From: Myxococcaceae bacterium JPH2
Lineage (GTDB): Bacteria > Myxococcota > Myxococcia > Myxococcales > Myxococcaceae
DNA length: 64,000 nt
Assembly (NCBI GenBank): GCA_016458225.1
Contig: JAEMGR010000010.1
Span: forward strand, 59,969-123,968
Direction of reading: 5' to 3'
Positions 6,206-56,598 of the stretch are shown piece by piece. The stretch's first letter is position 1, and each line of letters starts with the position of its first letter. Position numbers and translations under genes: made by a program. Below the pieces are notes generated by a model that was not told the origin of the DNA, made no database searches, and worked only from the letters and a program-made list of their open reading frames with translations.

Positions 6206-8140
6206 TTACGGGAGGGCGCCCTCCTTGGCCAGGACCGCCTCGAAGTCCGCGAGCTTCATGCTCTTGAGGTCCTCTCCGCCATAGCGGCGCGGGGCCACGC
6301 CGCCCGCTTCGACCTCGGCGTCACCCACCACCAGGGTGAACGGAACCTTCTGGATCTGCGCCTCGCGAATCTTCGCGTTGAGCGTCATCCCGCGCTCATC
6401 CACCTCGACGCGGTAGCCCTTGGCCCGGAGGTCGTCGCGGACCTTCCGCGCGTAGTCGAGCTGGCGGTCCGCCACGGTGACGAGCACCGCCTGGATCGGC
6501 GCCAGCCACGCCGGGAACGCACCGGCGAAGTGCTCGATGAGGATGGCCGTGAAGCGCTCGAACGAGCCGAAGATCGCCCGGTGCAGAACCACCGGCCGGT
6601 GCTCGGCGTTGTCCTCGCCGATGTAGTTCAGGTCGAAGCGCTGCGGCGCCAGGTAGTCCAGTTGCATGGTACCCAGCTGCCAGCGGCGGCCGATGCTGTC
6701 AGACACCGTGAAGTCGATCTTCGGGCCATAGAAGGCGCCATCGCCCGGAGCCAGCTCGTACGCCAGGCCCAGCGACTCCAGCGCCGTCTTCAGGCCGCCC
6801 TCGGCGCGATCCCAGAGCGAGTCATCCCCGAGGCGCTGCTCGGGACGCGTGGACAGCTTCACCGCATAGGTGAGCCCGACCGCCTTGTAGACGCGGTCCA
6901 GCAACTTCACGAAGCGCCGCACCTCGTCGGTGATCTGGCTCTCCATGCAGTAGATGTGGGCGTCGTCCTGCGCGAACTGGCGCACGCGGGTGAGGCCGCC
7001 GAGCGAACCCGCCGCCTCGTTCCGGTGCAGCACATCCTGCGTGTGGAGCCGCAGGGGCAGGTCGCGATAGCTGTGCCGCTTGAAGCCGAAGTACAGGTGA
7101 TGCGACGGGCAGTTCATCGGCTTGAGCGAGAAGTCGTGCTCCCCCGTCTCGTTGTCGAGCACGAGGAACATGTTCTCCTTGTACTTGCCCCAGTGGCCGC
7201 TGGTCTCCCAGAGCCCCTTGTTGAACATCAGGGGCGTCTTGATCTCCACGTAGCCATCGCCCGCCGTCAGGCCGCGCATCCAGTCGGAGAGCGTCTGGTA
7301 GAGCGCGGTGCCCTTCGGGGTCCAGAAGGCGGCGCCAGGCGCGTACGGGTGGAAGTGGAAGAGATCCAGCTCCTTGCCCAGCTTGCGGTGGTCGCGCTTC
7401 TTCGACTCCTCGATGCGCGTCACGTACTCCTGCAGCGCCTTCTTGTCGAAGAAGGCCGTGCCGTAGATGCGCTGGAGCATCGGGTTGCGGTGGTCGCCGC
7501 GCCAGTACGCGCCGCTGGAGGAGAGGATCTTGATGACGCCGATCTTCCCGGTGCTCGGAGCGTGGGGCCCCAGGCAGAAGTCCACCCAGTCGCCGTGGGT
7601 GTAGAGCGTGAGCGTCTTGGCGCCCTTCGCGGCGATGTCCTTGACGATCTCGACCTTGAAGGTCTCGCCCTTCTGCTCGAAGAGGCGAACGGCGTCCTCC
7701 ATGGAGATCTCGGTGCGGACAAACGCCTCGTCCTTCTTCAGGAGCGCGTTCGCCTCGGCCTCGATCTTCTCCAGGTCCTCCGGCGTGAAGGGCTTCTCGC
7801 GGAAGAAGTCGTAGTAGAAGCCCTCCTCCGTCGACGGGCCGATGGTGACCTGCGTCCCGGGGAAGAGGCGCTGCACGGCGCTGGCCACCACGTGGGCCGC
7901 GTCATGGCGGATGAGGTCCAGACCCTCGGGGCTCTTGGAGGTGAAGATCTGGAGCTTCACGTCCTCGGTGAGCGGGCGGGACATGTCCATGTCCTGACCG
8001 TTTGCCCGCGCGAAGAGCGCGGCCTTGGCCAACCCGGCCCCGATGCCCTCCCGCACGAAATCGCCGATGGTGGTTCCCCGGGCCGTCTGCTTCTGGCTGC
8101 CGTCGGGGAGCGTCACCGTGATCATTTCGGACATGAGCAA
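6206..8140 (-). CDS. thrS: Threonine--tRNA ligase
   Basis: 644 aa: a TGS domain ([12 protein letters not shown]...), a second additional domain, a class II catalytic core and a C-terminal anticodon-binding domain. The start may be one of three near-N-terminal Met codons (8140/8134/8125). Confidence 0.93.
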
Positions 8141-8210
8141 GACCTCGGAAATGCCGCGGGCGGCAGGCTTGTGGAAGCCATGCCGCCCGCTGTTTAAACG
8201 CTTACTGTGT

Positions 8211-8282
<72 letters not shown>

Positions 8283-8295
8283 GTCGTGCTGAGGT

Positions 8296-8331
8296 GCGCG
8301 GGGAATAGCAGTGGGCTCCCTCACCTGTCAA
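8296..8331 (-). promoter_or_regulatory. Candidate sigma70-type promoter for tRNA-Val(-thrS)
   Basis: Minus strand reads TTGACA (plus 8326-8331), a 17-nt spacer, CTATTC (plus 8303-8308), about 20 nt before the tRNA 5' end. Sequence-only prediction. Confidence 0.4.
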
Positions 8332-8383
8332 GAGAACACCGACACATGCCTGCACTCTTCTTTCGGCGCGCTCCAAACCGGCC

Positions 8384-9070
8384 TCACGCCCCGCTCGCCA
8401 GCAAGGTGTGAACGCGGGCCATCACTGCGTCGAACATGGCTGGGGTGAGCCGGCCGGTCTGCGTGTTCTGCTGGCTGACGTGGTAGCAGCCCACCAGCGT
8501 TCGCCCGCCCGGCAGGGGCAGCTCGGCGCCATGGCCGAACGCTGGTCGCGGCGAGGGAATCACGACGCCGGTCCGAGCCAACGCCACCAGCGCGGCGTTC
8601 CAGCCAATGGCCCCCAGCGCGAGCAGCACCCGAGCGGGCAGCAGCGCCAGCTCCCGGTCCATGAAGGGGGCACAGCGGGCCAGCTCCTCCGGCTCGGGCT
8701 TGTTGTCCGGGGGCGCACACCGCCCCGCCGCGACGATGAACGCGTCCTTCAGGCGGAGCCCGTCGTCGCGATGCTCGCTCGTCGGCTGGTTCGCGAAGCC
8801 CGCGCGGTGAAGTCCCGCGAAGAGGAAGTCCCCGGAGCGGTCGCCCGTGAACATCCGCCCTGTCCGGTTCGCCCCATGAGCGGCTGGCGCCAACCCCACC
8901 AGGACGAGCCGAGCCCGCGGATCACCAAACCCCGGCACGGGGCGGCCCCAGTAGGTCCAATCCCGGTAGGCCCGTCGCTTCACCCGGGCCACTTCCTCGC
9001 GCCACTCCACGAGGCGAGGGCAGGCACGGCACTCCACGATGTCCTGATGCAGCCGCTCCCACTTCGTCAC
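8384..9070 (-). CDS. Uracil-DNA glycosylase, family 4 (4Fe-4S type)
   Basis: 228 aa with a GTG start. It carries the N-terminal Cys motif ([14 protein letters not shown]...), [37 protein letters not shown], and a conserved C-terminal [14 protein letters not shown]. The GTG overlaps the upstream gene's TGA (GTGA). Confidence 0.85.
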
Positions 9071-9894
9071 TGCGCGCCTCCACGCACCGCGGCCTCCAGC
9101 CGCTCCACCCAGGCCCGAGCCATCGCCAGCGACTTCGCGTCGTCACCGACCTCCAGCTCCAGCTCGGCTCCGGGCGTCAGGCTGAACAGCGCGACCAGGG
9201 CCTCCTCATCCGGGGGCCCCTGGACACGCACCCGCCTGCCCAGCGCCCAGCGCCGCGGCGGTCTCACGGTGCCCTGCCCTTCCATCCAGGCCACCCGGGC
9301 CCAGGATCCACGAAGCCCCTGCCACCACTCCACGGGGGCTGTGGAGGACTCAGCGGCTGGAGGCTCGGGCGGATTCGGCGTGGCTTCGGAGGGCTCCTTC
9401 GACGCGACCTGGGAGAGATCCACCACCTTCATCCCTGGGAGCCAGACGAGTTCTCCCCAGGCCGCCAGCGTCGCTTCGTCGCGGGTGCGGGGCATCCAGG
9501 TCACCCGCCTCGGCCGCAGCGCGGCGATCCGCGTGGCCTGATCCGTCTCCAGGCTTCCCCGGATGTCCACGGCCACCGGGCGCGGACCGAGCCGATACCA
9601 ATCCCCCGAGACCATCGCCGCGTCCAGCCACACTCCTACCCGAGGCGCGTGGCGGAACTGCTGGACCTGGGCATCTCGCAGTGGAGGACGCAGCTCGACG
9701 TAGGCCTCGGGGAAGCGCGCCACGGCATCCATCGTCGAATCCCGCAGCATGTTCGAGTGCGTGCGCAGCCACAGCACGGTTCCGCTGGCGGCCAGACTCC
9801 GCAGTTGCTCGGGATCCACTGACTCGTTGACGCGCAGGTGCAGACGGTATCCGGACAACGCCAGGGTCCGAGGCCCCGGAGACTGCGCGAGCAT
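9067..9894 (-). CDS. Hypothetical protein (~276 aa), translationally coupled to the UDG gene
   Basis: The track ORF (to 10197) overlaps the AI-2E gene in another frame for its first ~100 codons, which look like low-complexity artefact. A plausible start is the Met of MLAQSPGPRTLALSG at 9894, just after the AI-2E stop (9921). I recognise no family. Confidence 0.45.
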   Translation of the reverse strand: MLAQSPGPRTLALSGYRLHLRVNESVDPEQLRSLAASGTVLWLRTHSNMLRDSTMDAVARFPEAYVELRPPLRDAQVQQFRHAPRVGVWLDAAMVSGDWYRLGPRPVAVDIRGSLETDQATRIAALRPRRVTWMPRTRDEATLAAWGELVWLPGMKVVDLSQVASKEPSEATPNPPEPPAAESSTAPVEWWQGLRGSWARVAWMEGQGTVRPPRRWALGRRVRVQGPPDEEALVALFSLTPGAELELEVGDDAKSLAMARAWVERLEAAVRGGAQ

Positions 9895-9920
9895 CGCCGC
9901 CACCACCAGCGCCGCGGGCG

Positions 9921-11033
9921 TCACGGGCCTCGCGCCTCGCCCAGATACAGCGCCGTGCGGCGATAGCGCTGAATGACCACGCGCAGCACCACCTTCAGGA
10001 TGGCACTGGCGGGCACCGCGAGGAGGATGCCCACGAAGCCGAACAGCTCTCCGAAGGCGAGCACCGCGATGATGACCGCCACCGGGGCCAGCCCCACCTT
10101 CTCGCCCACCACGCGCGGCGTGATGACGAGCCCTTCGGCAGCCTGCGCGACGATGAACGTGGCAGCCACCACGGCGAACTGCCACGGGCCTTGCCACGAC
10201 AACAGGACGCCCAGCAACGACAGCACCACTCCGATGCCCGTCCCCAGGTACGGCACCATGTTGCCGAAGCCCGCGAGCACGCCGATCACGATGGCCAGGT
10301 CAATGCGGGCCACCGACAGCCCCGACACGTACAGCACCGACAGGATGGCTCCAACCGTGAGCTGGCCTCGCACGAACGCGGACAGCACCTCATCCACTTC
10401 GCGGAATCGGCCACTCACGAGCGTCACGGCTCGACGGGGCAGCAGCGCCTGCACGCGTTCGACGAGCGCGGGGTAGTCCTTGAGGAAGAAGAACGCGAGC
10501 ACCGGCACCACCGCCAACCCCAGCAGCGTGGCCACGAAGCGCGCTGTGTTGCCCGCGAAGCTCGCGACCAATCGCGCCGCGGTGGGGCCCGCGCTCTGGA
10601 GCAGCTCGGAGGCCTTCTCGCCCATCTCCGCCGCGCGACGGCTCACCAGTTCGGGCAGGGAGACACCGAGGAGCGCCTCGATTCGCGGCACGACCTCGGT
10701 GCTCGCGCGCTGGAAGAACTCTGGCAGCTTCGCCGCCTCGTCGCGGAACACCGGCACGAGGTAGAGCATCGCGCCCACCCACACGAGCAGGCCCGCGACG
10801 AAGACACATGTGGTCCCCAGCGCTCGCCGCATCCCTCGTCGCTCGAGCGCCGTCACGAGCGGGTTCAGGGCATACGCGCCCGTCAGCGCGAGCAACACCG
10901 GCACCGCCACGCCCCCGAAGACGGACAACAGCGCGAACACCCAACCCAACGAGCCCACCATCACCGCGGACCAGATGAAGTCGATGCGACGTCCCTCGGC
11001 TTCAGGCAAGGACTCCGACTCCACGAGGTGCAA
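9921..11033 (-). CDS. AI-2E family transporter (PerM/YhhT-like permease)
   Basis: 370 aa, polytopic membrane protein with the typical AI-2E layout (…LNPLVTALERRGMRRALGTTCVF…; C-terminal GELFGFVGILLAVPASAIL). Confidence 0.8.
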   Translation of the reverse strand: MHLVESESLPEAEGRRIDFIWSAVMVGSLGWVFALLSVFGGVAVPVLLALTGAYALNPLVTALERRGMRRALGTTCVFVAGLLVWVGAMLYLVPVFRDEAAKLPEFFQRASTEVVPRIEALLGVSLPELVSRRAAEMGEKASELLQSAGPTAARLVASFAGNTARFVATLLGLAVVPVLAFFFLKDYPALVERVQALLPRRAVTLVSGRFREVDEVLSAFVRGQLTVGAILSVLYVSGLSVARIDLAIVIGVLAGFGNMVPYLGTGIGVVLSLLGVLLSWQGPWQFAVVAATFIVAQAAEGLVITPRVVGEKVGLAPVAVIIAVLAFGELFGFVGILLAVPASAILKVVLRVVIQRYRRTALYLGEARGP

Positions 11034-11144
11034 GTGTGGCTCGGGGGCGGGAGCGGGCTTGGGCTCTACCCGAGGATTGCTCGCGCGGCCACGACCTTGG
11101 ATGCGACGTGCGATGACGTTCTCCTCCCGAAGCTACGGCTGGGG

Positions 11145-11921
11145 CTACGGCGCCTTCGTTGGCTGATTGCGCTTCACGAACTGCCCGAACGCATCGTTCG
11201 CCACCTTGCGGTCCAACGCACCGACCGTGGCCTTGCCCAGCTCACCGTCCACCCGGACCTGACGGTCCTTCTGAAGCTGGATGAAGGTCTGCTCCCACTC
11301 ATCCAGCGACACTTCATGCGGCCCATCCACCTGCACGCGCCCCGACGGTCCGGGCTTGGGAGGTGCTGTTCCGCCCTTCCCCGCGGCCTTTCGCACGCGC
11401 GCCGCGACCTGCACCTGCCCCTCCGAGACCTGCACCAATGTCGAGGGAGACAGCGCGCCCGCGACGGTCGGCGCCGCGGCATCCACGCGGAACATCGTGC
11501 CGCGCACACCCGCCACCGCTCGGTCCGTCTCCACCTCGAACTTGGCGGAGGAGCCCGCCAGCGCCTTCTTCACGCTCGCCCAGACCTTGCCCAGGCCGAG
11601 CCTGGCGACGAAGCCCTTGCGTTCCTGTCCCTCGAAGTCCGCCTCGCTGATGAACAACCGGCTGCGCTCCCCGAGCATCAGCACGCTGCCATCGTTCAAC
11701 ACGAGCTTGAGGTTCGACGCGGCGCCCACCTCCAGCGTGTCCCGCACCTCGATGTCCGAGCCCACGTTCAGCGACTGCGCGGAACCTTGCTCGGGTGCTC
11801 GCGAGGCCGTGCCTTCGAGCACTTCCACGCGACCGATGGCCGCGAAGGCCCAGCTTGGAGCCAGCACGACGAGCAGCAGCCACCGAGCGAATTGAAGCCA
11901 TCCTCCGCGCTGTCGCGTCAC
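11145..11921 (-). CDS. FecR-domain protein with N-terminal signal peptide
   Basis: The track ORF is over-extended. A GTG at 11921 overlaps the upstream gene's stop (GTGA) and gives VTRQRGGWLQFARWLLLVVLAPSWAFA (signal peptide). This is followed by a FecR-like beta domain (…DIEVRDTLEVGAASNLKLVLNDGSVLMLGERSRL…). Confidence 0.6.
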   Translation of the reverse strand: MTRQRGGWLQFARWLLLVVLAPSWAFAAIGRVEVLEGTASRAPEQGSAQSLNVGSDIEVRDTLEVGAASNLKLVLNDGSVLMLGERSRLFISEADFEGQERKGFVARLGLGKVWASVKKALAGSSAKFEVETDRAVAGVRGTMFRVDAAAPTVAGALSPSTLVQVSEGQVQVAARVRKAAGKGGTAPPKPGPSGRVQVDGPHEVSLDEWEQTFIQLQKDRQVRVDGELGKATVGALDRKVANDAFGQFVKRNQPTKAP

Positions 11922-12283
11922 GGTGTCCCTCCCCCGCTGGGGGTGCCCGAGGCGCGCAACTGAATGTGCAGCGTCGCGCGCGCGCCACTGGCCTCGTAGT
12001 AGGTCGTGTAGGGCCAAAAGCCCTGCTTCCGCACGTCGATCTGGTGCAGGCCCTCGCCCACGCCGAGCCCTCGTGGAGAGCCCGCGAAGTCGCGACACAT
12101 GCCCTGCGGCACCCCGTCCAACGACACCTCGGCGTCCGATGGATCGCACCGCAGCACGAGATCACCGCGTGGAGTGCCCGCCGTGCGCATCAGCTCGCGC
12201 GCCCGCGCCATCGTCGCGGGCTCAGGCTGGCTCGACGCGCAGCCCGTCCAGGCCACCACTCCCATCCAAAGCACGAACCTCAT
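11918..12283 (-). CDS. Small lipoprotein (121 aa), unknown function
   Basis: MRFVLWMGVVAWTGCASSQ... has a lipobox with Cys. The ATG overlaps the upstream stop (ATGA) and its stop overlaps the downstream GTG start. Confidence 0.55.
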   Translation of the reverse strand: MRFVLWMGVVAWTGCASSQPEPATMARARELMRTAGTPRGDLVLRCDPSDAEVSLDGVPQGMCRDFAGSPRGLGVGEGLHQIDVRKQGFWPYTTYYEASGARATLHIQLRASGTPSGGGTP

Positions 12284-13482
12284 CGCGCCACGGTCAGCTC
12301 GAGTCGATTGCCACTCACCGCCGTCACCCGCACCTTCCGCTTCTGATACGTCGCCGCGCCCAGGCTCTCCGCCAGCGTGTCGGTCCCACCGAGGTACGTC
12401 ACGTCGAAGCGCGCCTTGCCCTCGGCGAACTCGCCCGCCTTGACGTCTCGCACGCCTTGAACCGACTGCGCGAGGACCTTCTGGAACGCGCGCACCGCCG
12501 CGTAGTCCGGCAGCCCCACCACCGTCATCGCCACCACGTTCCCGTTCTGCTCGGCCTGCGCGAGGTGCTCCAGCACCGCCTTGCGCACCTCGGCGACAAT
12601 CTTGGCGCCGCGCACCTTGGCGATGTTGAACGACGTCCGCTCATACGACGTCACGGGCGCCTGTCCGGTGCTGGCGTTCCCGCTGTTGAACGCGTCCGTC
12701 AGCCGCGCGAGCTGCGTGCCCGAGTCCGTGGCGAACACCGCCAGCTCCCACTCGCCCGCCACCGGGTAATAGCCAACGTCCTTCACCAGCTCCTTCGTGG
12801 TGCCGAGCACGCCCTCATGCCGGAACGTCACCGTCCCCGAGATGACGTAGTCCGCCACGCGCAGGTCCTGGATGATCTTCTTGTCCGGCGTCGTCAGAGA
12901 GACCCCTGAACTCACCTCCAGTTTCCCGGCCGCGAACGAGGGGTCGATGATCCGCCAGCCGTCCTTGCGAAACGTCTCGGTGAGCACCTGGGTCAGTACG
13001 GAGCTGCTGGTGATGACCTTCTCGGGACTGATGGACTGCTCGCTCAAGACGATGAGCAGCTTGCTGCCCCCGAGCCTTCGCACCAGGGCCTGCGCGGCCT
13101 GGAGATCCTTGTCGAGTTCAGCGGTGCCGACCTCCGCGCGCACCGTGACGCGCGTCACTCCGCCCTCGTCCTTGCGCTCCAGGACCTCGTACTTGCGCAC
13201 GTAGCCCGCGCTGTTCGTGAAGACGCGATCGCTGAGCAACTGGCTGTTCGAGGTGAGCGTGTCCGAGGACACCAGCACTCCCGCCACCTGCTCCACCGCT
13301 TCGCGGAGCGCCGCGTTGCGCGCATCGGTGAAGGCCTTCTCGCGGTTGCCGTCGACGATGGCGGCCTCGCCCGTCGCTTCCTTCACCACCGTCGCGGGCG
13401 CCGTGGGTTCCGCGGCCACGGCCAGGCAGGACAGCAACACGCATAGGACAGAGAGCTTCCAGGACATACGTCGCGTCCTCAC
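12280..13482 (-). CDS. Secreted protein with N-terminal LPP20-like domain (400 aa)
   Basis: Signal peptide MSWKLSVLCVLLSCLAVAAEP. It is followed by an LPP20-like pattern (…AIVDGNREKAFTDARNAALREAVEQVAGVLVSSDTL…GYVRKYEVLERKDEGGVTRVTVRAEV). Family call is by motif recognition only. Confidence 0.55.
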   Translation of the reverse strand: MRTRRMSWKLSVLCVLLSCLAVAAEPTAPATVVKEATGEAAIVDGNREKAFTDARNAALREAVEQVAGVLVSSDTLTSNSQLLSDRVFTNSAGYVRKYEVLERKDEGGVTRVTVRAEVGTAELDKDLQAAQALVRRLGGSKLLIVLSEQSISPEKVITSSSVLTQVLTETFRKDGWRIIDPSFAAGKLEVSSGVSLTTPDKKIIQDLRVADYVISGTVTFRHEGVLGTTKELVKDVGYYPVAGEWELAVFATDSGTQLARLTDAFNSGNASTGQAPVTSYERTSFNIAKVRGAKIVAEVRKAVLEHLAQAEQNGNVVAMTVVGLPDYAAVRAFQKVLAQSVQGVRDVKAGEFAEGKARFDVTYLGGTDTLAESLGAATYQKRKVRVTAVSGNRLELTVAR

Positions 13483-45292: not shown

Positions 45293-45367
<75 letters not shown>

Positions 45368-45397
45368 GCACCATCTGTCTTGTATGTCTTTCAACAA

Positions 45398-45433
45398 CTG
45401 AGGCCCGATCCTGCATTCAAAATCGGGCCTCAG
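45398..45433 (-). repeat. Inter-tRNA spacer hairpin (12-bp stem), repeated in each of the three 75-bp spacers
   Basis: CTGAGGCCCGAT-cctgcattcaaa-ATCGGGCCTCAG. It repeats identically at +149 (45547..45582) and +298 (45696..45731). Likely an RNase processing structure in the polycistronic precursor. Confidence 0.7.
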
Positions 45434-45441
45434 CTTACTGA

Positions 45442-45516
<75 letters not shown>

Positions 45517-45590
45517 GCACCATCTGTCTTGTATGTCTTTCAACAACTGAGGCCCGATCCTGCATTCAAAATCGGGCCTCAGCTTACTGA

Positions 45591-45665
<75 letters not shown>

Positions 45666-45739
45666 GCACCATCTGTCTTGTATGTCTTTCAACAACTGAG
45701 GCCCGATCCTGCATTCAAAATCGGGCCTCAGCTTACTGA

Positions 45740-45814
<75 letters not shown>

Positions 45815-47986: not shown

Positions 47987-48160
47987 GTCCCATGAAAAAG
48001 GCGGCGCACTCTACACGCGCGCCACCTTTAGAGGAAGATCGATACGCACACGCCGAGCGCACCGATGCTCCCGGGACAACTTACACGTCGGGAACAATCA
48101 TCCCGTTGCGCCTCAAACCTTTGCCCGGAAGCCCGCCTGGGCCCCGAGCGACGAGGCGCG

Positions 48161-49777
48161 TCAGCGAGCGATTCCGAGCCGGCGCCCCACCTTGCGGAAC
48201 ACGGCGCCCGCCTCGGGGACGCCCAGGGCGGCCGCGAGTGCGAAGTACACGGCCCCAAAGGGAATCGCCACGGCGAGCAGCGACAGGACGGGGTTCAGGT
48301 GCGGCGGAACGAGCAGGTGCCCCCCCCACTCCGCTGTCACCCCGGGCATGGGTCCCAGCCACCGGGCCAGCCCCAGCTTGATGCCGAGTCCGACGAGGCC
48401 GGCCACGCCCGCCGCCAGCCACAGCCGGGGCAGCAGTCCCGCCGGCAGGCCCACGGGCCCCAGGCGCTGCACGAGCTTGCGGCGCAGGAGGGTGGTCTCC
48501 AACCAGGCCACGATGCCGCTCGACAGGGTGAGAAATGCGGCCCCCAGCTCCCGGGGCACACCGAGCCAGTCGGGCAACCACAGCGCCAACACGTACGCCT
48601 TCGCCGTGCCCAGCGCCACGCGCAGCACGGCGTAGCGCAGGGGCGTCTTCGGGTCCTTCAGGGCATAGAAGGCGGAGGCGTACAGGCGCCCCACCGTGGA
48701 AGCCACGAGCCCGACGGCCGCGCCCATGAGCAGGTACCAGAGGTAGCGGGAGTCCGCCGCGTCGAAACGCCCCGTCTGCAGCAGCGCCGCGCTCACCAGG
48801 TCGCCCACGAAGAGGAACGCCGCGGCCGAGGGCACCACCCAGAAGGCGATGCGCCGCGCGCCCCCATCGATGCGCGTCCGCAACTTCACGTGGGCATCCG
48901 CGTCTCCTTCTCCCGTGGCCCGCGCCATCTCGGGAAGCTCGGCGGCCGAGACCGCCATGCCGAAGAGGCTCACCGGGATGAGGTAGACGGTCTGCGCGTA
49001 CAGCAGGGAAGACAGGGCGCGGCTGGAGATGAGCGACGCGAAGGCGGTGTCCACCCAGGCGCTGAACTGCACCACGCCGCGGCCCAACACCACGGGGCCG
49101 AAGTTGCGCAGCACCTGTCGCACGGACGCGTTCGCCAGCGACAGCGCCGGGCGGAAGCGCCCCAGCAGGCGCAGCACCGTGGGGAGCTGCACGGCGAACT
49201 GGAAGAAGCTGCCCACGCCCACGCTGTAGGCGAGGATCTCCGCCAGCTTCTCCTCGCCGTAGCGGCCACCCGCCCCGAGCAGCGTGGCGATCATCACCAC
49301 GTTCCACACCACGGGGGCCAGATACGAGAGCAGGAAGCGCCGGTGGCTGTTCAGGATTCCAAGACACCAGGCGCTCAGTACGAGGAGCCCCGTGCCCGGG
49401 AAGATGATGCGCACCAGCCGGATGGCCAGCTCACGCTCTTCCCCATGAAAGCCCGGGGCGATGATCTCCACGAACATCGGCGTGGCGAGCATGCCCATCG
49501 CCACCGTCAGGCCCGTCACCAGCGCGAGCAGGCCGAACACCGCGCCCGCCACCCGGTCCGCTTCCTCCGCGTCCTTCTTGCCCAACAGCTGGGCATAGAC
49601 GGGGATGAAGGAGCCGGACAGCACGCCCTCACCAAAGAGGTTCTGCAGGAAGTTGGGGATGCGCAGCGCGGCCTTGAAGACGGCGGCCGCGGCGGCGTTG
49701 CCCAGGTAGTGGGCGAACACGCGCTCGCGCACGAGCCCCATGAGGCGCGAGGCCAGGATGCCGATGGCGACGAGCAT
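48161..49777 (-). CDS. murJ: Lipid II flippase MurJ (MviN)
   Basis: Start at MLVAIGILASRLMGLVRERVFAHYLG (conserved MurJ N-terminus RxxGxxRD). 14 TM helices. The track ORF is over-extended by 203 codons of low-complexity sequence. A possible Pro/Ala-rich extension from a GTG at 49870 cannot be excluded. Confidence 0.85.
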   Translation of the reverse strand: MLVAIGILASRLMGLVRERVFAHYLGNAAAAAVFKAALRIPNFLQNLFGEGVLSGSFIPVYAQLLGKKDAEEADRVAGAVFGLLALVTGLTVAMGMLATPMFVEIIAPGFHGEERELAIRLVRIIFPGTGLLVLSAWCLGILNSHRRFLLSYLAPVVWNVVMIATLLGAGGRYGEEKLAEILAYSVGVGSFFQFAVQLPTVLRLLGRFRPALSLANASVRQVLRNFGPVVLGRGVVQFSAWVDTAFASLISSRALSSLLYAQTVYLIPVSLFGMAVSAAELPEMARATGEGDADAHVKLRTRIDGGARRIAFWVVPSAAAFLFVGDLVSAALLQTGRFDAADSRYLWYLLMGAAVGLVASTVGRLYASAFYALKDPKTPLRYAVLRVALGTAKAYVLALWLPDWLGVPRELGAAFLTLSSGIVAWLETTLLRRKLVQRLGPVGLPAGLLPRLWLAAGVAGLVGLGIKLGLARWLGPMPGVTAEWGGHLLVPPHLNPVLSLLAVAIPFGAVYFALAAALGVPEAGAVFRKVGRRLGIAR

Positions 49778-49975
49778 GGCCCCCCGTCCGCTCCCTCGCT
49801 CCGGGGGGGCCTGGGTGGCGACGGCGGGCTTCGGCGGCTCGGCGGGCGATGCGGGTGCTGGGGCGGTCACGCGGGCGCGGACTCTAGCGCCGTGTCCAGC
49901 GCCATGAAGCAGGAAACCCACCGAGCCCTCTTTCACTTGACGGTGCCCCCAACGGATTGCGAGGGTCGCGCCCCC

Positions 49976-50434
49976 ATGGCCGGAAACTCCGACACCGAGC
50001 GGTCTGACGTGGCGCGCATCCGCGCCGTGCTGGCGCGCGAGCTGGAGACCATCAACGAGTACGAGGCGTTCGCGGAGGCCTCGACCAATCCGGAAGTCCG
50101 CGCCTTCTTCCTGCACCTGGCGGCCGAGGAGAAGGAGCACGTCTTCGAGGCCACCCACATGCTGCGCATGCTGGATGCCGGACAGGACGCGCACTTCACG
50201 CACCCCATCGCGCCCGGGCACTTCCAGCAGGCCATCGCGGGAGGAAAGGCCGCGGCGTCCGCGCCGCCTCCCTCGCCCTCCACGGCCGCGCCCCATGGCC
50301 GCACGCCTCCCGAGCCGCTGACTCCCCTGCCCCCCCACCGCCTCATCTACGGCATGCCGGCCCCGCCCCCTTCCGAGGGCAGCCATCCGCTGACCGTGGG
50401 TCCCCTGCGCCGAGGCGGCGGCGGTGGACGCTGA
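49976..50434 (+). CDS. encB: Ferritin-like/rubrerythrin-like encapsulin cargo protein (EncB-like) with C-terminal targeting peptide
   Basis: This is a sub-ORF of an artefactual 789-aa track ORF. MAGNSDTERSDVARIRAVLARELETINEYEAFAEASTNPEVRAFFLHLAAEEKEHVFEATHMLRMLD is a four-helix-bundle di-iron ExxH pattern. A Pro/Ala-rich linker follows. The C-terminus …HPLTVGPLRRGGGGGR resembles family-1 encapsulin cargo-loading peptides. It lies 50 nt upstream of encA. Confidence 0.75.
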   Translation: MAGNSDTERSDVARIRAVLARELETINEYEAFAEASTNPEVRAFFLHLAAEEKEHVFEATHMLRMLDAGQDAHFTHPIAPGHFQQAIAGGKAAASAPPPSPSTAAPHGRTPPEPLTPLPPHRLIYGMPAPPPSEGSHPLTVGPLRRGGGGGR

Positions 50435-50484
50435 GCCTCTTTCGATTCTCCTCCCGTTTGTTGCCGTCGTGACGGAGCCTTCCG

Positions 50485-51351
50485 ATGCCTGACTTTCTTG
50501 GACATGCCGAGAACCCGCTGCGCGAAGAGGAGTGGGCGCGCCTGAACGAGACGGTGATCCAGGTCGCCCGCCGCTCGCTCGTCGGCCGCCGCATCCTGGA
50601 CATCTACGGTCCGCTCGGCGCGGGCGTGCAGACGGTGCCCTACGATGAGTACCAGGGCGTGTCCCCCGGCGCCGTGGACATCGTCGGGGAGCAGGAGACC
50701 GCGATGGTCTTCACCGACGCGCGCAAGTTCAAGACCATCCCCATCATCTACAAGGATTTCCTGCTGCACTGGCGGGACATCGAGGCGGCGCGCTCGCACA
50801 ACATGCCGCTGGACGTGTCCGCCGCCGCGGGTGCCGCCGCGCTGTGCGCTCAGCAGGAGGACGAGCTCATCTTCTACGGCGACACCAAGCTCGGCTACGA
50901 GGGCTTGATGACGGCCGTGGGCCGACTCTCGGTCTCGCTCGGAGATTGGACCGCCGCGGGTGGCGGCTTCCAGGCCATCGTCGAGGCCACGCGCAAGCTC
51001 AACGAGCACGGCCACTACGGCCCCTACGCCGTGGTGCTGTCGCCGCGCCTGTACTCGCAGCTGCACCGCATCTACGAGAAGTCGGGCGTGCTGGAGATCG
51101 AGACCATCCGGCAGCTCGCCTCGGATGGCATCTTCCAGTCCAACCGCCTGCGCGGTGACTCGGGCGTGGTGGTGTCCACCGGCCGCGAGAACATGGACCT
51201 CGCGGTGGCCATGGACATGGTCACCGCCTACCTGGGCGCCAGCAAGATGAACCACCCGTTCCGGGTCCTGGAGTCGCTGCTGTTGCGCATCAAACACCCG
51301 GACGCCATCTGCACCATCGAGGGCACTCCCTCGGCCCCGCGCCAGTCGTAG
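50485..51351 (+). CDS. encA: Family-1 encapsulin shell protein (HK97-fold; EncA-like)
   Basis: 288 aa. [56 protein letters not shown]… matches my recollection of M. xanthus EncA almost residue for residue. GGAG lies 7 nt before the ATG. Confidence 0.88.
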
Positions 51352-51362
51352 GCCCCGCGTCC

Positions 51363-52784
51363 ATGGCCAAGGTCCTGGTAATCGACGACGAGGCCAACCT
51401 GCGCAAGGTGCTGGCCGCGCTGCTGCGCCGGGACGGCTTCGACGTCACCGTCGCCGAGAACGGCGAGCAAGGGCTCGCCGAGTTCCACAAGAACGGCGCG
51501 GACATCGTGGTGACGGACCTGGTGATGCCCAAGGTGGGCGGCATGGAGGTCCTCGCCTCCGTGCGCGCGGCCAACTCGGACGTGCCCGTCATCATCATCA
51601 CCGCGCACGGCACGGTGGACTCCGCGGTGGAGGCCATCAAGGCCGGTGCGTTCGACTACATCACCAAGCCGTTCGATCAGGCCGAGCTGTCCTCCGTCGT
51701 GGCCAAGGCCGCCAAGACGAACGAGAGCGCCAAGCGCTCGGTGCGCCCGGACCACAAGGCGCGCGCGGCCATCATCGGCGAGTCCCCGACCATCCAGGAC
51801 GTCTACAAGATCATCGACAAGGTCGCGGACACGCCCTCGACGGTGCTGATCACCGGAGAGAGCGGCACGGGCAAGGAGCTCATCGCCACCGCGCTGCACG
51901 GCGCCTCCAGCCGGCGCGACAAGCCCTTCATCAAGATCAACTGCGCGGCCATCCCCGCCACGCTGCTGGAGAGCGAGCTGTTCGGCTACGAGAAGGGCGC
52001 CTTCACCGGGGCGGTCACCTCCAAGCCGGGCCGCTTCGAGCTGGCCGACGAAGGCACCCTCTTCCTGGACGAGATCGGCGAGATCCCCGTCGAGATGCAG
52101 GTGAAGCTCCTGCGCGCGCTCCAGGAGGGCGAGTTCGAGCGCGTGGGCGGTATCAAGACGACGCGCGTGGATGTGCGCCTGGTCGCGGCCACCAACCGGG
52201 ACCTGCAGGCGGAGATTGAAGCGGGACGCTTCCGCAAGGACCTGTACTACCGCCTGGCGGTGGTCCCCATCGTGTTGCCCGCGCTGCGTGAGCGCCGGAG
52301 CGACATCCCCATGCTCGCCCAGCATTTCGTCGACAAGTACAACCGGCGCCTCAACAAGAAGATCGAGGGCATCGCGGACGACGCGCTGGCCCTGCTGCAG
52401 ACCTACGCGTGGCCCGGCAACATCCGCGAGTTGGAGAACCTCATCGAGCGCGTGCTGCTCTTCGCGGATGGTCCCCTCATCACCGCGAAGGACCTGCCCG
52501 AGCCCGTGCGACAGGGCACGAGCATGACCGCGGGCGCGGGCACGTCCTCCTCGGCCACGCTCGAGGTCCCCACGGGCGAAGTGGGCCTCAAGGACATCGT
52601 CCGGATGAAGGCGGCCGAGTTGGAGCGCGACCTCATCGTGAAGAAGCTCGATGAGACGGGCGGCAACGTGACGCGGGCCGCGCGCCTGCTGCAGATCAGC
52701 CGCAAGTCGCTCCAGACGAAGATGAAGGAGTTTGGCCTCCGCGACCCGTCGCCGGAAGGCCAGGACGAGGGGCCGGACGAGTAA
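51363..52784 (+). CDS. Sigma-54-dependent response regulator (NtrC family: REC-AAA+-HTH)
   Basis: REC domain (VLVIDDE…DLVMPKVGG…). Sigma54 AAA+ core with GESGTGKE Walker A, GAFTGA, and the [12 protein letters not shown] motif. C-terminal Fis-type HTH. It starts 11 nt after the encA stop. Confidence 0.9.
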
Positions 52785-52882
52785 CCCCTCGCTGTTCCCC
52801 ACCCACGACCGCGGGCCGAAATATCGCCGGAATGCCGGCGGTTTCGGGCCCGCGTACCCATTGCCACCCTCCGGGAGCCTGC

Positions 52883-53947
52883 ATGCGGCCGAACCTTCCC
52901 ACCCTCGGTGCCCCACCGAAGCGCAACCCCTTCGGACCGGTGGTCGCCGTCTCCGTCATCCTCGGCGCGGCCGCGGGAGGCGTGTGGTGGTGGAAGCAGC
53001 GCATGGCGCAGGCCACGCAGGAGGTCAGCGCGGAGGCGCAGGCCGCTCCGCCCGATGCCGGCACCCCGGCGCCCCAGCAAGCGACCGCCGCCGCGGCCCC
53101 CACCGGCGCGACGCCCACCGCGACGCCGGAGACCCCGGCGAAGGCCGCGGGCCTGGAGCACGCCTCCATGCGCATCAACGGTCCGCTGGAGACCGCGTTC
53201 GTCCAGGCCGCCGGCTCGGACGTGGGCCCCGCGCTGTCCCAGGTCGTCACCCGCACGCTGGTGTGGTGGGTGCGCGTCCCGGGCGAGGTGCTCCGGGGTG
53301 ACACGCTCGACGTCATCTACCAGCGCCGCGACGGCGAGGAGCCGCTCGTGTACGCGGTCCGGTTCGTCAGCGCGAAGACGGGCCAGACGCACCGGGCCTA
53401 TCGCTTCCAGCCCGAGGGCGAGGCCAACGCCCGCTACTACCTGCCCACGGGCGAGGAGCTGGAGCTGCGGCTCGAGCACTCCCCCATCGACACGTATGAG
53501 CAGGTGACGTCGCTGCTGCGCGACGGCCGCGGACACAAGGGCGTGGACTTCCGCGCCCCGGTGGGCACGCCCGTCAAGGCGCCGTTCGCCGGCGTCATCA
53601 AGCGCAAGAACTGGAACTGGGGCAGCAACGGCAACTCACTGGAGCTGGTCGAGTCCGGCGGCAAGGCGCGCCGCGCCCTCTTCCTGCACCTGTCCGAGCT
53701 GCCCAAGAGCCTCCAGGCCGGGGCGCGCTTCAACGTGGGCCAGGTGCTGGCCCACAGCGGCAACACGGGCCACTCCTTCGCGCCCCACCTGCACTACCAG
53801 CTCATGACGCAGGATGACCGCGTACTGGACCCCTTCGATCAGCACAAGACCTACCGTGGCGCACTTAAGGCGACGCAGAAGTCCGCCTTTGAACAGGAGG
53901 TCCGCCGGCTCGATGGACTCCTGGGGACCCCGGTCGCGGGCAAGTAA
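52883..53947 (+). CDS. M23-family (LytM-domain) peptidase, membrane-anchored
   Basis: Start at MRPNLPTLGAP (GGGAG upstream). N-terminal TM segment and a Pro/Ala/Thr linker. M23 motifs HKGVDFRAPVGTPV and HLHYQL. Confidence 0.8.
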   Translation: MRPNLPTLGAPPKRNPFGPVVAVSVILGAAAGGVWWWKQRMAQATQEVSAEAQAAPPDAGTPAPQQATAAAAPTGATPTATPETPAKAAGLEHASMRINGPLETAFVQAAGSDVGPALSQVVTRTLVWWVRVPGEVLRGDTLDVIYQRRDGEEPLVYAVRFVSAKTGQTHRAYRFQPEGEANARYYLPTGEELELRLEHSPIDTYEQVTSLLRDGRGHKGVDFRAPVGTPVKAPFAGVIKRKNWNWGSNGNSLELVESGGKARRALFLHLSELPKSLQAGARFNVGQVLAHSGNTGHSFAPHLHYQLMTQDDRVLDPFDQHKTYRGALKATQKSAFEQEVRRLDGLLGTPVAGK

Positions 53948-54022
53948 ACGCCATCTGATTCTTGACACCCCTCCGAGGGCACGGCTAGCTGACAGCCCTG
54001 GCCATTTGTCGTCGGAGGTCGG

Positions 54023-55318
54023 ATGCACAGGCTTCGCGCCGTTCTCGCCGCGCTGACGCTCAGCGCGCCGTTGGCCGCCAGCGCGGCGGATATCACGCGG
54101 ATCGCGTCCTCGTTCGAGGATGACGATCCGTTCGATCTCTTCATCGACGTGGGGTTCGAGCGGACACAAACCCGCGCAAAGCTCGTCCGGGAGCAGGCTC
54201 CGTCGGTCGACGGCGGCCACCTCCAGGAGAGCAACGAGCTCTGGTACAAGGGCGTGGACTCGCGCCTGAACCTGCGGCTGGCCTTCGGCCTCTACCGCGA
54301 CCTTGAGTTCTCCTTCGCGGTCCCCATCGTCTTCCAGCAGAACGAGCGCTGGGACTTCGTCAGCGGCACCACGCTGGCCAACTCCACCATCACCAACAAC
54401 TGCATCAACGCGGACGGCTCGACCATTCCGGGCTGCCTCGCGGACCCGGCCGGGCTGGGGCATCCCCTGTTCGGCGTGCCGCAGGAGAGCTTCCGCGGCG
54501 GCCTGGGCAACATGCACTTCGGCATGGCCTACGCCTTCTTCAACCAGGAGAAGGACGACACCAAGCCCACGTGGATCATCGGCCTGGACTGGGAAGCCCC
54601 CACCGCGAAGCAGCGCGACCCGAGCGTGGACACCACGGATCCGGACAACCGCGGCAACGTGGGCGACCGGGTGCACAAGTACCAGATCTACACGTCGTTC
54701 TCGCGGCGCATGGGCATCGCGGACCCGTACTTCCGCGCCTCGTACACCATCCCGGTGCGCGGCCCGAAGTTCTACTCCAACTGCGATCAGCGCGACGCCT
54801 CGCCCCCCAACCTGGGCGCGCCAGAGAACTGCCTCACGGGCCCATGGGATCGCAGGGAGACGGGCATCAAGTCCCCCACGCAGGCCAGCATGCTCTTCGG
54901 CGTGGAGCTGGTGCCCTTCCAGAACGACAAAAAGTTCCAGAAGTTCGCCTTCGACCTGCGCGCCATCGGCAACTACGTGGGCAAGGGCCGCTACTACAAC
55001 GAGCTGTCTTCGGCGCTGCGCAAGCTGCTGACGTCGGAGGACTACTTCCAGGTCGGTGGGCTCGTGGGTGTCTCGGCGCGCGCCGCCGAGGCCTTCAGCA
55101 TCCGCGCCTCGGGGACGTTCCTCTACAACTCGGACCACCTGCTGACGTCCGAGACCATTGGCAAGGACGAGGACAGCAGCGGCAACGTCAACGTGGCGGC
55201 GAACCCCTCCGAGGTGAATCCGAACTTCGACTGGCGCTACGACGTGGCCGGCCGTCGCTTCCGCGCCACGGAGAGCACCACGTTCCGCTTCGACCTCTCG
55301 GCCAGCTTCAGCTTCTGA
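54023..55318 (+). CDS. Outer-membrane beta-barrel protein, unknown function
   Basis: Signal peptide MHRLRAVLAALTLSAPLAASAAD. Alternating amphipathic beta strands, rich in aromatic and Gly residues. C-terminal …DLSASFSF, an OMP beta-signal ending in Phe. Confidence 0.6.
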   Translation: MHRLRAVLAALTLSAPLAASAADITRIASSFEDDDPFDLFIDVGFERTQTRAKLVREQAPSVDGGHLQESNELWYKGVDSRLNLRLAFGLYRDLEFSFAVPIVFQQNERWDFVSGTTLANSTITNNCINADGSTIPGCLADPAGLGHPLFGVPQESFRGGLGNMHFGMAYAFFNQEKDDTKPTWIIGLDWEAPTAKQRDPSVDTTDPDNRGNVGDRVHKYQIYTSFSRRMGIADPYFRASYTIPVRGPKFYSNCDQRDASPPNLGAPENCLTGPWDRRETGIKSPTQASMLFGVELVPFQNDKKFQKFAFDLRAIGNYVGKGRYYNELSSALRKLLTSEDYFQVGGLVGVSARAAEAFSIRASGTFLYNSDHLLTSETIGKDEDSSGNVNVAANPSEVNPNFDWRYDVAGRRFRATESTTFRFDLSASFSF

Positions 55319-55361
55319 CCGAGGGCCTCGGCCCTGGGGCACGCGTGCCCTGGGGCTTGTC

Positions 55362-56195
55362 TTAACGCTGCTTCAGTCCCAGGCCGAGCCGGTACACTTC
55401 CTGACCGGCCCAGCCCGCGCGGCGAGCCAGCTCGGTGCTCAGCGCCTTGAGCTTCTCGCCCCGGCTCAGCCCCTCTTGGAGGGCACGCTGAATCTCCTCC
55501 TCGGACCAGCGCCGCTCACCAGTGCGTCCTTCCACCAGGACCACGACTTCGCCCCGAGCCTCTTCGGCGGCATAGCGCGCGGCCAGCTCCGACAGCGGCG
55601 CTCGAACGAACTCCTCATGGAGCTTGGTCAGCTCGCGGGCCACGCAGGCCCGCCGCTCGCCCCAGGCCGCGTGGAGATCCACGAGCGTCTCGCCCAATCG
55701 ACGGGGTGACTCATAGAGAACCAGCGTGGCGGACAGCGGAGCGACTTCCTCCAGCATCGCGTGGCGCTCAGGTCCCTTCCGAGGCAGGAAGCCCAGGAAG
55801 TGGAACCGCCCCGTGGGCAGGCCAGACGCACTCAGCGCGGCCACCAGCGCCGTGGCACCAGGAACCGGCACCACCGTCACCCCGCGCTCCAGGGCCTCGG
55901 CGACCAGCTTCTCCCCGGGGTCGCTGATGCCAGGGCTCCCGGCGTCGGTGATGAGGGCGCAGTCCTCGCCCTCCACGATGCGCTCCAGGATGCGCCCGGC
56001 CCGCTGGCCCTCGGCGAAGGCAGGCAGGCTCACCAGGTCCTTGCCCCCAATCCCAAAGTGGTCGAGCAACACCCGCGAGTGCCGCGTGTCCTCGCAAGCG
56101 AGGAAGCGCGCCGAGCGCAGCGTCTCCAGCGCCCGCGAGGTGATGTCCCCCAGGTTTCCGATGGGAGTGGCGACGAGATAGAGCGTTCCAGCCAT
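55362..56195 (-). CDS. rsmI: 16S rRNA (cytidine1402-2'-O)-methyltransferase
   Basis: Start at MAGTLYLVATPIGNLGDIT (conserved RsmI N-terminus), verified ATG at 56193-56195. Tetrapyrrole-methylase fold (…FLACEDTRHSRVLL…). Confidence 0.88.
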   Translation of the reverse strand: MAGTLYLVATPIGNLGDITSRALETLRSARFLACEDTRHSRVLLDHFGIGGKDLVSLPAFAEGQRAGRILERIVEGEDCALITDAGSPGISDPGEKLVAEALERGVTVVPVPGATALVAALSASGLPTGRFHFLGFLPRKGPERHAMLEEVAPLSATLVLYESPRRLGETLVDLHAAWGERRACVARELTKLHEEFVRAPLSELAARYAAEEARGEVVVLVEGRTGERRWSEEEIQRALQEGLSRGEKLKALSTELARRAGWAGQEVYRLGLGLKQR

Positions 56196-56205
56196 GGGGC
56201 GTTCC

Positions 56206-56598
56206 TCACATACCGGCGTCGAAGGCGCCAGGAATGTGTTCCACCGTGGCGTGCGCGCCGCGCCCCACCACGGAGATGACGTCGAAGCGCACCATGCGCT
56301 CGCGCACGTCATACTTGAAGAGGTAGTGCATCGCCGCCTTCACCACGCGGCGCTGCTTGGCGAACGACACCGTGTCCACGGGCTCGCCGCACGCGGTGGA
56401 GGAGCGCATGCGCACCTCGACGAAGCACACGAACTCGTCGCGCTCGGCCACCACATCCAGCTCACCGTAGCGACATGTCCAGTTGCGGGCCCGCACGCGC
56501 CACCCCTGTGCCTCCAGGAAGCGCACCGCGCTGTCTTCCGCCGTACTCCCCCACCCGCGCCGCTCTCCCGGCGCCGCCGCCCGTCCCATCCCACACAC
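56206..56598 (-). CDS. yraN: YraN-family (UPF0102) endonuclease-like protein
   Basis: …AEDSAVRFLEAQGWRVRARNWTCRYGELDVVAERDEFVCFVEVRMRSS… matches the YraN/UPF0102 core. Start likely a few codons into the track ORF. Confidence 0.75.
   Translation of the reverse strand: MCGMGRAAAPGERRGWGSTAEDSAVRFLEAQGWRVRARNWTCRYGELDVVAERDEFVCFVEVRMRSSTACGEPVDTVSFAKQRRVVKAAMHYLFKYDVRERMVRFDVISVVGRGAHATVEHIPGAFDAGM

Follow-up and report, generated by a model that had tools for sequence, protein, structure and literature searches.

We analysed a window of 64,000 nucleotides (nt) from Myxococcaceae bacterium JPH2 (assembly GCA_016458225.1, contig JAEMGR010000010.1, positions 59,969 to 123,968 of the forward strand; all positions below are those of the window). 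Five co-oriented genes of this window lie between a divergent murJ and a convergent rsmI: encB for a ferritin-like cargo, encA for an encapsulin shell protein, a gene for an NtrC-type sigma54 enhancer-binding protein (EBP), one for an M23 metallopeptidase and one for a protein of 431 amino acids (aa), with rsmI on the opposite strand directly 3' of the last (Table 1). We found that the region is very probably the orthologue of the EncB/EncA iron-storage encapsulin operon of Myxococcus xanthus, in a host closest to Citreicoccus inhibens, and no evidence contradicts this identity of the locus. The system itself is already known, being a textbook encapsulin in a sister genus, for which the structures of shell and cargo have been solved and NCBI maintains dedicated models. 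An earlier note on this DNA had given the coordinates and sizes of encB, encA and the EBP gene with gaps of 50 and 11 nt between them, all of which proved right against the open reading frame (ORF) table and the sequence, and it had described the locus as divergent from murJ with a control region of about 200 nt, for which we measured 198 nt.

Table 1. Features of the encapsulin locus and its surroundings, in window coordinates
Feature	Position	Strand	Remarks
murJ (lipid II flippase), divergent neighbour	48161-49777	-	Pfam MurJ E=1.6e-85; TIGR01695 300.7 bits (cutoff 235.6)
Divergent intergenic control region	49778-49975	.	198 nt between the murJ and encB start codons
Conserved blocks GGACTCTA (reverse complement TAGAGT) and CATGAAGCAGGAA	49879-49916	-	70-90% column conservation
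Putative -35 box TTGACG of the encB promoter	49937-49942	+	CTTGACGG at least 90% conserved (58-locus alignment)
Putative -10 box GAGGGT	49961-49966	+	18-nt spacer after the -35 box; 9 nt before the ATG
encB	49976-50434	+	ATG start; 152 aa; EncFtn-type ferritin-like cargo
EncB ferroxidase-centre residues	E22 50039-50041; Y29 50060-50062; E52 50129-50131; H55 50138-50140	+	by alignment
EncB tail motif 1, RLIYGMPAPP (aa 122-131)	50339-50368	+	consensus R-h-h-Y-G-h-P-A-P-P; conservation island within the variable Ala/Pro linker
C-terminal targeting peptide PLTVGPLRR (aa 138-146), then GGGGGR	50387-50413	+	match to published peptides
encB-encA spacer	50435-50484	+	50 nt; Shine-Dalgarno GGAG at 50474-50477, 7 nt 5' of the encA ATG
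encA	50485-51351	+	288 aa; family 1 encapsulin shell protein, HK97 fold
NtrC-type sigma54 enhancer-binding response regulator (EBP)	51363-52784	+	473 aa; Response_reg, Sigma54_activat, AAA_lid_14, HTH_8
M23 metallopeptidase (encF-like)	52832-53947	+	Peptidase_M23 E=1.2e-18; downstream of the EBP gene in 63 loci
431-aa protein (encG-like), last co-oriented cluster gene	54023-55318	+	N-terminus signal-peptide-like by eye

EncA matched PF04454 Linocin_M18 over residues 3-265 with E=2.9e-68 and 230 bits (cutoff 24.3), and the family 1 encapsulin equivalog NF041155 encap_f1 over residues 7-278 with 290 bits (cutoff 100), so that the prediction of an HK97-fold encapsulin at 50485-51351 was borne out far above both cutoffs. 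The M. xanthus encapsulin structures used for comparison were PDB 4PT2, 7S20, 7S2T and 7S5C; EncA aligned with M. xanthus EncA (4PT2/7S20) over residues 1-286 with E=5.5e-178 and was about 91% identical to the solved protein, and 25 substitutions separated it from the 287-aa EncA of M. xanthus AM003. Judged by this near-identity to solved structures, EncA is an HK97-fold protein, and we regard its fold as settled. The targeting-peptide pocket of M. xanthus EncA was assigned by Kwon et al. to R28, R34, D38, N105, D213 and D243, and the window EncA has the identical residues at R29, R35, D39, N106, D214 and D244, none of them being among the 25 differences. The cargo gene expected of a family 1 shell is present as well, encB lying 50 nt upstream with a product that ends in ...PLTVGPLRRGGGGGR. 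Alternatively, encA might be a degenerate prophage HK97 capsid gene and not part of a cellular nanocompartment, since the HK97 fold is common to encapsulins and weak secondary Pfam matches to Major_capside (E=8e-7) and DUF6260 were obtained. However, Linocin_M18 and encap_f1 score about 200 bits more, no flanking phage genes (portal, protease or terminase) were seen nearby, the gene is paired with a cargo bearing a targeting peptide, and its place beside murJ is conserved vertically across the family; a prophage origin is hardly conceivable.

The cargo is equally close to its M. xanthus counterpart. EncB scored 269.1 bits against the EncB-specific model NF058678 (cutoff 210), 100.8 bits against NF058679 EncB_fam (cutoff 90) and 30.6 bits against the EncFtn-like PF22277 (E=3e-7, cutoff 27), and stayed under the cutoff of 125 for TIGR04535 with 47.6 bits. 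Its N-domain is about 80% identical to that of M. xanthus EncB and matched structure 7S5C with E=9e-38, which together with the 4PT2 match of the shell upholds the assignment of the pair to the M. xanthus EncA/EncB type. The four residues E22, Y29, E52 and H55 align to Glu32, Tyr39, Glu62 and His65 of Rhodospirillum rubrum EncFtn, which make up a di-iron ferroxidase centre (PMC5012862), and M. xanthus EncB has the same ferroxidase ligands; the proposed ferritin-like character of the 49976-50434 product, with its di-iron ligands, was thus confirmed at all four positions. The EncFtn systems of R. rubrum and Haliangium ochraceum (PDB 5DA5, 5N5F, 7OE2) resemble the window in the two-helix EncFtn fold with its Glu/Tyr/Glu/His centre, in loading by a C-terminal targeting peptide and in the cargo gene directly upstream of the shell gene, but they differ in having T=1 shells and the targeting peptide SLGIGSLK in place of PLTVGxLRR, and their sequence similarity to the window EncB is weak (E about 1e-5).

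Previous studies gave the targeting peptide of M. xanthus EncB as PLTV(I)GS(T)L (PMC11202242) and established that the 8-aa LTVGSLRR alone is enough to load foreign cargo in the M. xanthus system (PMC5959871). In the window EncB ends in ...HPLTVGPLRRGGGGGR according to the ORF table and the sequence, and a terminal TVG-type peptide was found in 63 of the 64 listed orthologue tails, the exception (L076) being a disrupted locus; the expectation that the tail is kept in orthologues and matches known loading peptides therefore held. The Ala/Pro-rich linker (aa 86-117) was poorly conserved over the 64 orthologues, whereas the targeting peptide was 70-90% conserved. Compared with M. xanthus EncB, the order of linker, motif 1, targeting peptide and Gly-rich end is the same, but the linker sequence has diverged and LTVGSLRR is replaced by LTVGPLRR, so that GPL stands where M. 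xanthus has GSL (Ser to Pro). The GPL variant was also seen in an unrelated clade of metagenome-assembled genomes (MAGs), and no EncA columns tracking the change from GSL to GPL were found across the 64 loci.

Further, motif 1, which precedes the targeting peptide, shows conservation of its own. The consensus R-h-h-Y-G-h-P-A-P-P was placed 6-7 aa before the targeting peptide in 47 distinct loci, and in those loci its codons vary synonymously (TAC/TAT, GCN, CCN), which indicates that selection acts on the protein. The earlier note had supposed that the tail may carry two loading motifs, and of this the second conserved motif is real; it does not, however, repeat the targeting peptide, and it is not required for loading as such because LTVGSLRR alone suffices. 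The tail of EncB could conceivably consist of two working parts, with motif 1 making an additional contact, specific to EncB, to the shell or to a partner cargo, and if so this contact could set the stoichiometry or position of EncB or bias the shell towards T=3. Natural variants with a double targeting peptide also exist: in two EncB orthologues (L056 and L066) the terminal peptide is preceded, at a distance of about 30-40 residues, by a genuine second copy of [LF]TVG.

We surveyed the synteny of the cluster by tblastn of its proteins on 78 related loci. The order of divergent murJ, encB, encA, EBP gene, M23 gene, 431-aa gene and convergent rsmI was kept in about 60 Myxococcaceae genomes of the genera Myxococcus, Corallococcus, Pyxidicoccus, Archangium, Hyalangium and Vitiosangium, M. 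xanthus itself included, whose loci L014 and L017 have the layout of the window with five co-oriented genes between murJ and rsmI. The 431-aa gene follows the M23 gene in 62 of 63 loci with 44-100% identity (at 9530-10825 in M. xanthus L014). The nearest genome was that of Citreicoccus inhibens M34 (EncA 99%, EncB 95%, MurJ 96%), so the window comes from another genus than the M. xanthus system, with which it shares murJ as the 5' neighbour and the encB-encA order. We take the five genes to be the counterpart of the M. xanthus cluster encBAEFG (MXAN_3557-3553; reportedly described by Kim et al. 2019, J Microbiol), with the EBP gene as the counterpart of encE/MXAN_3555, the gene beside encA; the activator thus belongs to a cluster already named in M. 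xanthus, where the neighbouring genes have reportedly been deleted. Between that cluster and the window we saw no structural difference, and our comparison adds to it the gap statistics from 69 loci and the promoter footprint described below. One MAG locus, L054, had no detectable encB and carried a 5.5-kb insertion (6850-12410) between encA and the EBP gene; its translation looked P-type ATPase-like by eye, and a run of N lies nearby, so that a misassembly is possible.

The control region was examined in an alignment of the intergenic sequence from 58 loci, in which the distance between murJ and encB ranged from 141 to 277 nt and was mostly 180-210 nt. The putative -35 box stands 31-35 nt from the encB ATG in 46 of the 58 loci, and the -10 hexamer reads [G/A]A[G/T]GGT across the alignment at 9-10 nt before the ATG, with AATGGT or GATGGT in Archangium and Hyalangium. 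Moreover, encB is without a Shine-Dalgarno sequence, whereas encA has GGAG. This conservation suggests that the encB promoter is of the sigma70 type (TTGACG, 18 nt, GAGGGT), and since this promoter would end 9 nt before an ATG that lacks a Shine-Dalgarno sequence, the pattern also suggests a leaderless or near-leaderless encB mRNA. Upstream of the putative promoter, at 49862-49916, there are three further conserved non-coding blocks, GGCGGTCA, GGACTCTA and CATGAAGCAGGAA, which may be sites for a regulator or else a promoter of murJ (TTCATG-16-TAGAGT) read from the minus strand.

The EBP matched PF00072, PF00158 (250 bits) and PF02954 in Pfam and has a Fis-type helix-turn-helix (HTH) at its C-terminus. 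Its receiver aspartate is D52 in D-L-V-M-P, its Walker A motif GESGTGKE is at 165 and its GAFTGA loop at 212. In NCBIfam no equivalog was reached at cutoff, which means that the protein is not AtoC, NtrC or ZraR proper and should be regarded as an unnamed NtrC-type activator; it is 85-94% identical across the named Myxococcaceae genera. A regulator so tightly and constantly linked to encA, with GAFTGA loop, Walker A, receiver aspartate and HTH all intact and with conserved blocks of unproven role 60-115 nt upstream of the putative start, could be dedicated to the compartment, in that, bound at a site 5' of encB, it would switch on a sigma54 promoter within the 198-nt region and so regulate its own operon positively. 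This, however, did not agree with the promoter evidence. The sigma54 -24/-12 element that the earlier note had proposed to look for in 49778-49975 did not appear: in a scan for TGGCAC-N5-TTGC and GG-N10-GC the best site there scored 5/12, which is the background mode. The best GG-N10-GC in 49700-50000 likewise scored 5/12, none of the sites with the window maximum of 8/12 lay in the cluster, and the encB-encA, encA-EBP and other cluster spacers held nothing above background. The only strongly conserved promoter element is the sigma70-type TTGACG at its fixed distance from the ATG. In addition, M. xanthus deletions of cluster genes other than encA and encF are reportedly without the encA phenotype, which we also counted against a dedicated regulator. 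A literature search for MXAN_3555 and for a link between encapsulin and an enhancer-binding protein found no papers. We consider such dedicated sigma54 control very unlikely.

Co-expression of the activator with the compartment is a different matter. The gap between the encA stop and the EBP start had a median of 22 nt and did not exceed 32 nt in 64 of 69 loci; in L046 and L052 the EBP start overlaps the encA stop by 4 nt. In the same two loci the end of encB as extracted, which is possibly inexact, overlaps the encA start by 8 nt, and the overlaps in this clade suggest translational coupling. A terminator scan of 49500-53200 gave two hits, both on the minus strand and none on the plus strand, and a scan of 52700-56500 gave none, although such scans are uninformative at 69% GC. 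Given the mostly short gaps in the 69 loci and a plus strand free of predicted terminators, encB, encA and the EBP gene are most likely co-transcribed, as judged from the gene arrangement. The proposal that a start 11 nt after encA reflects co-transcription or dedicated regulation is accordingly supported in its first half, and its second half, sigma54 regulation of the operon, is not.

In M. xanthus, EncA and EncB (with EncC and EncD) form a T=3 iron-storage encapsulin. The mechanism was shown in that species and is carried over here by orthology, the window itself offering sequence-level conservation of every required element. In this scheme 180 EncA subunits would self-assemble into a T=3 HK97-fold shell, and EncB would form ferroxidase decamers in which E22, E52 and H55 of two chains make the di-iron centre. 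The targeting peptide PLTVGPLRR, at the end of the disordered Ala/Pro linker, would dock on the inner face of EncA in a pocket that has the P-domain on one side and the N-terminal helix on the other, by which EncB would be captured during shell assembly. Fe(II) would then enter through the shell pores, be oxidised by the cargo and be laid down as an iron/phosphate core, and this storage of iron would shield the cell from oxidative (peroxide) stress. The operon would be read from the sigma70-type promoter ending 9 nt before the encB ATG, giving a leaderless or nearly leaderless mRNA, and transcription would continue through encA into the activator gene and perhaps also into the M23 and 431-aa genes, so that the activator would be co-expressed with the compartment instead of driving it from a local sigma54 promoter. 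The joint reading, namely a bipartite EncB tail together with a leaderless sigma70 transcript by which an orphan sigma54 activator is expressed along with the compartment, is tentative and as a whole unlikely; if true, the co-expressed activator would link the iron and oxidative status of the cell to development and phase variation that depend on sigma54. Neither the bipartite tail nor the leaderless co-expression of the activator was found described in the searchable literature.

Several points weigh against parts of this picture. The predicted EncA-binding peptide of the window has Pro for the Ser of M. xanthus. No gene for EncC or EncD, the further cargos of M. xanthus, lies in the window, where a six-frame search for further targeting-peptide proteins (EncC- or EncD-like) returned EncB only. 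The promoter and the leaderless start were deduced from conservation alone, the -10 hexamer GAGGGT is weak, and a generic sigma70 promoter scan, itself uninformative at 69% GC, gave no site that met its criteria. Finally, short gaps and synteny are no proof of co-transcription, as the housekeeping genes murJ and rsmI, functionally unrelated, are equally conserved in position. The EBP, M23 and 431-aa genes could thus be simple syntenic neighbours in a conserved core-genome block with no functional tie to the encapsulin. This would also fit four distant Myxococcota loci (L070-L073; EncA 56-57% identical), which have the cargo gene and are without the EBP, murJ and M23 genes, as well as the insertion that separates encA from the EBP gene in L054. 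On the other side, 64 of the 69 loci have gaps that leave too little room for a separate promoter and terminator, the encA stop codon overlaps the EBP start codon in L046 and L052, and, according to a second-hand account in PMC9321382, a delta-encF mutant of M. xanthus shares the developmental defect of delta-encA. Mere adjacency is therefore possible but rather doubtful, and we retain co-transcription of the activator gene with encB and encA.

The locus has little discovery value, and what is new in it is small and inferential: the operon gap statistics, the lack of a sigma54 promoter, a sigma70-type and probably leaderless promoter, and the second tail motif. Its practical value lies in a naturally occurring GPL version of LTVGSLRR, a tag in wide use for cargo loading, in a conserved extra tail motif that engineers routinely leave out, and in a promoter footprint from which a leaderless transcript of the sigma70 type, and not sigma54 control, is predicted.

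Several gene calls in the region required attention. Gene encB forms the 3' end of a 789-aa ORF (48065-50434) whose upstream part is antisense to murJ. The GC content by codon position in this upstream part was 0.92/0.49/0.71, against a GC3 of 0.93 in both murJ and the EncB N-domain, and from its GC1 of 0.92 and GC3 of 0.71 we regard it as a shadow frame of murJ. The statement that both genes are buried inside this ORF applies to encB; encA, by contrast, is listed as its own 288-aa ORF. We also considered an EncB start at the in-frame ATG 49904, which would add 24 codons (MKQETHRALFHLTVPPTDCEGRAP; 49904-49975), and rejected it by cross-species comparison, because the added stretch holds the conserved -35 box, its length differs between species by non-multiples of 3, the ATG is missing there in some species, and MAG is where both the 7S5C construct and the EncB model of NCBIfam begin. 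This upstream ATG could mislead gene callers. The start of the M23 gene is ambiguous, since orthologue alignments start at about residue 15 and a conserved Met (MRPNLPTLG) lies at 52883; the true start may be this MRPNL Met, in which case the gap between the EBP and M23 genes would grow from 47 to 98 nt. A Pfam search with the 431-aa protein matched no family, and Rfam and tRNA scans detected no RNA elements within the locus. Outside it, we observed four identical tandem tRNA-Met(CAT) genes on the minus strand at 45293-45814 of the window, with a period of 149 nt.

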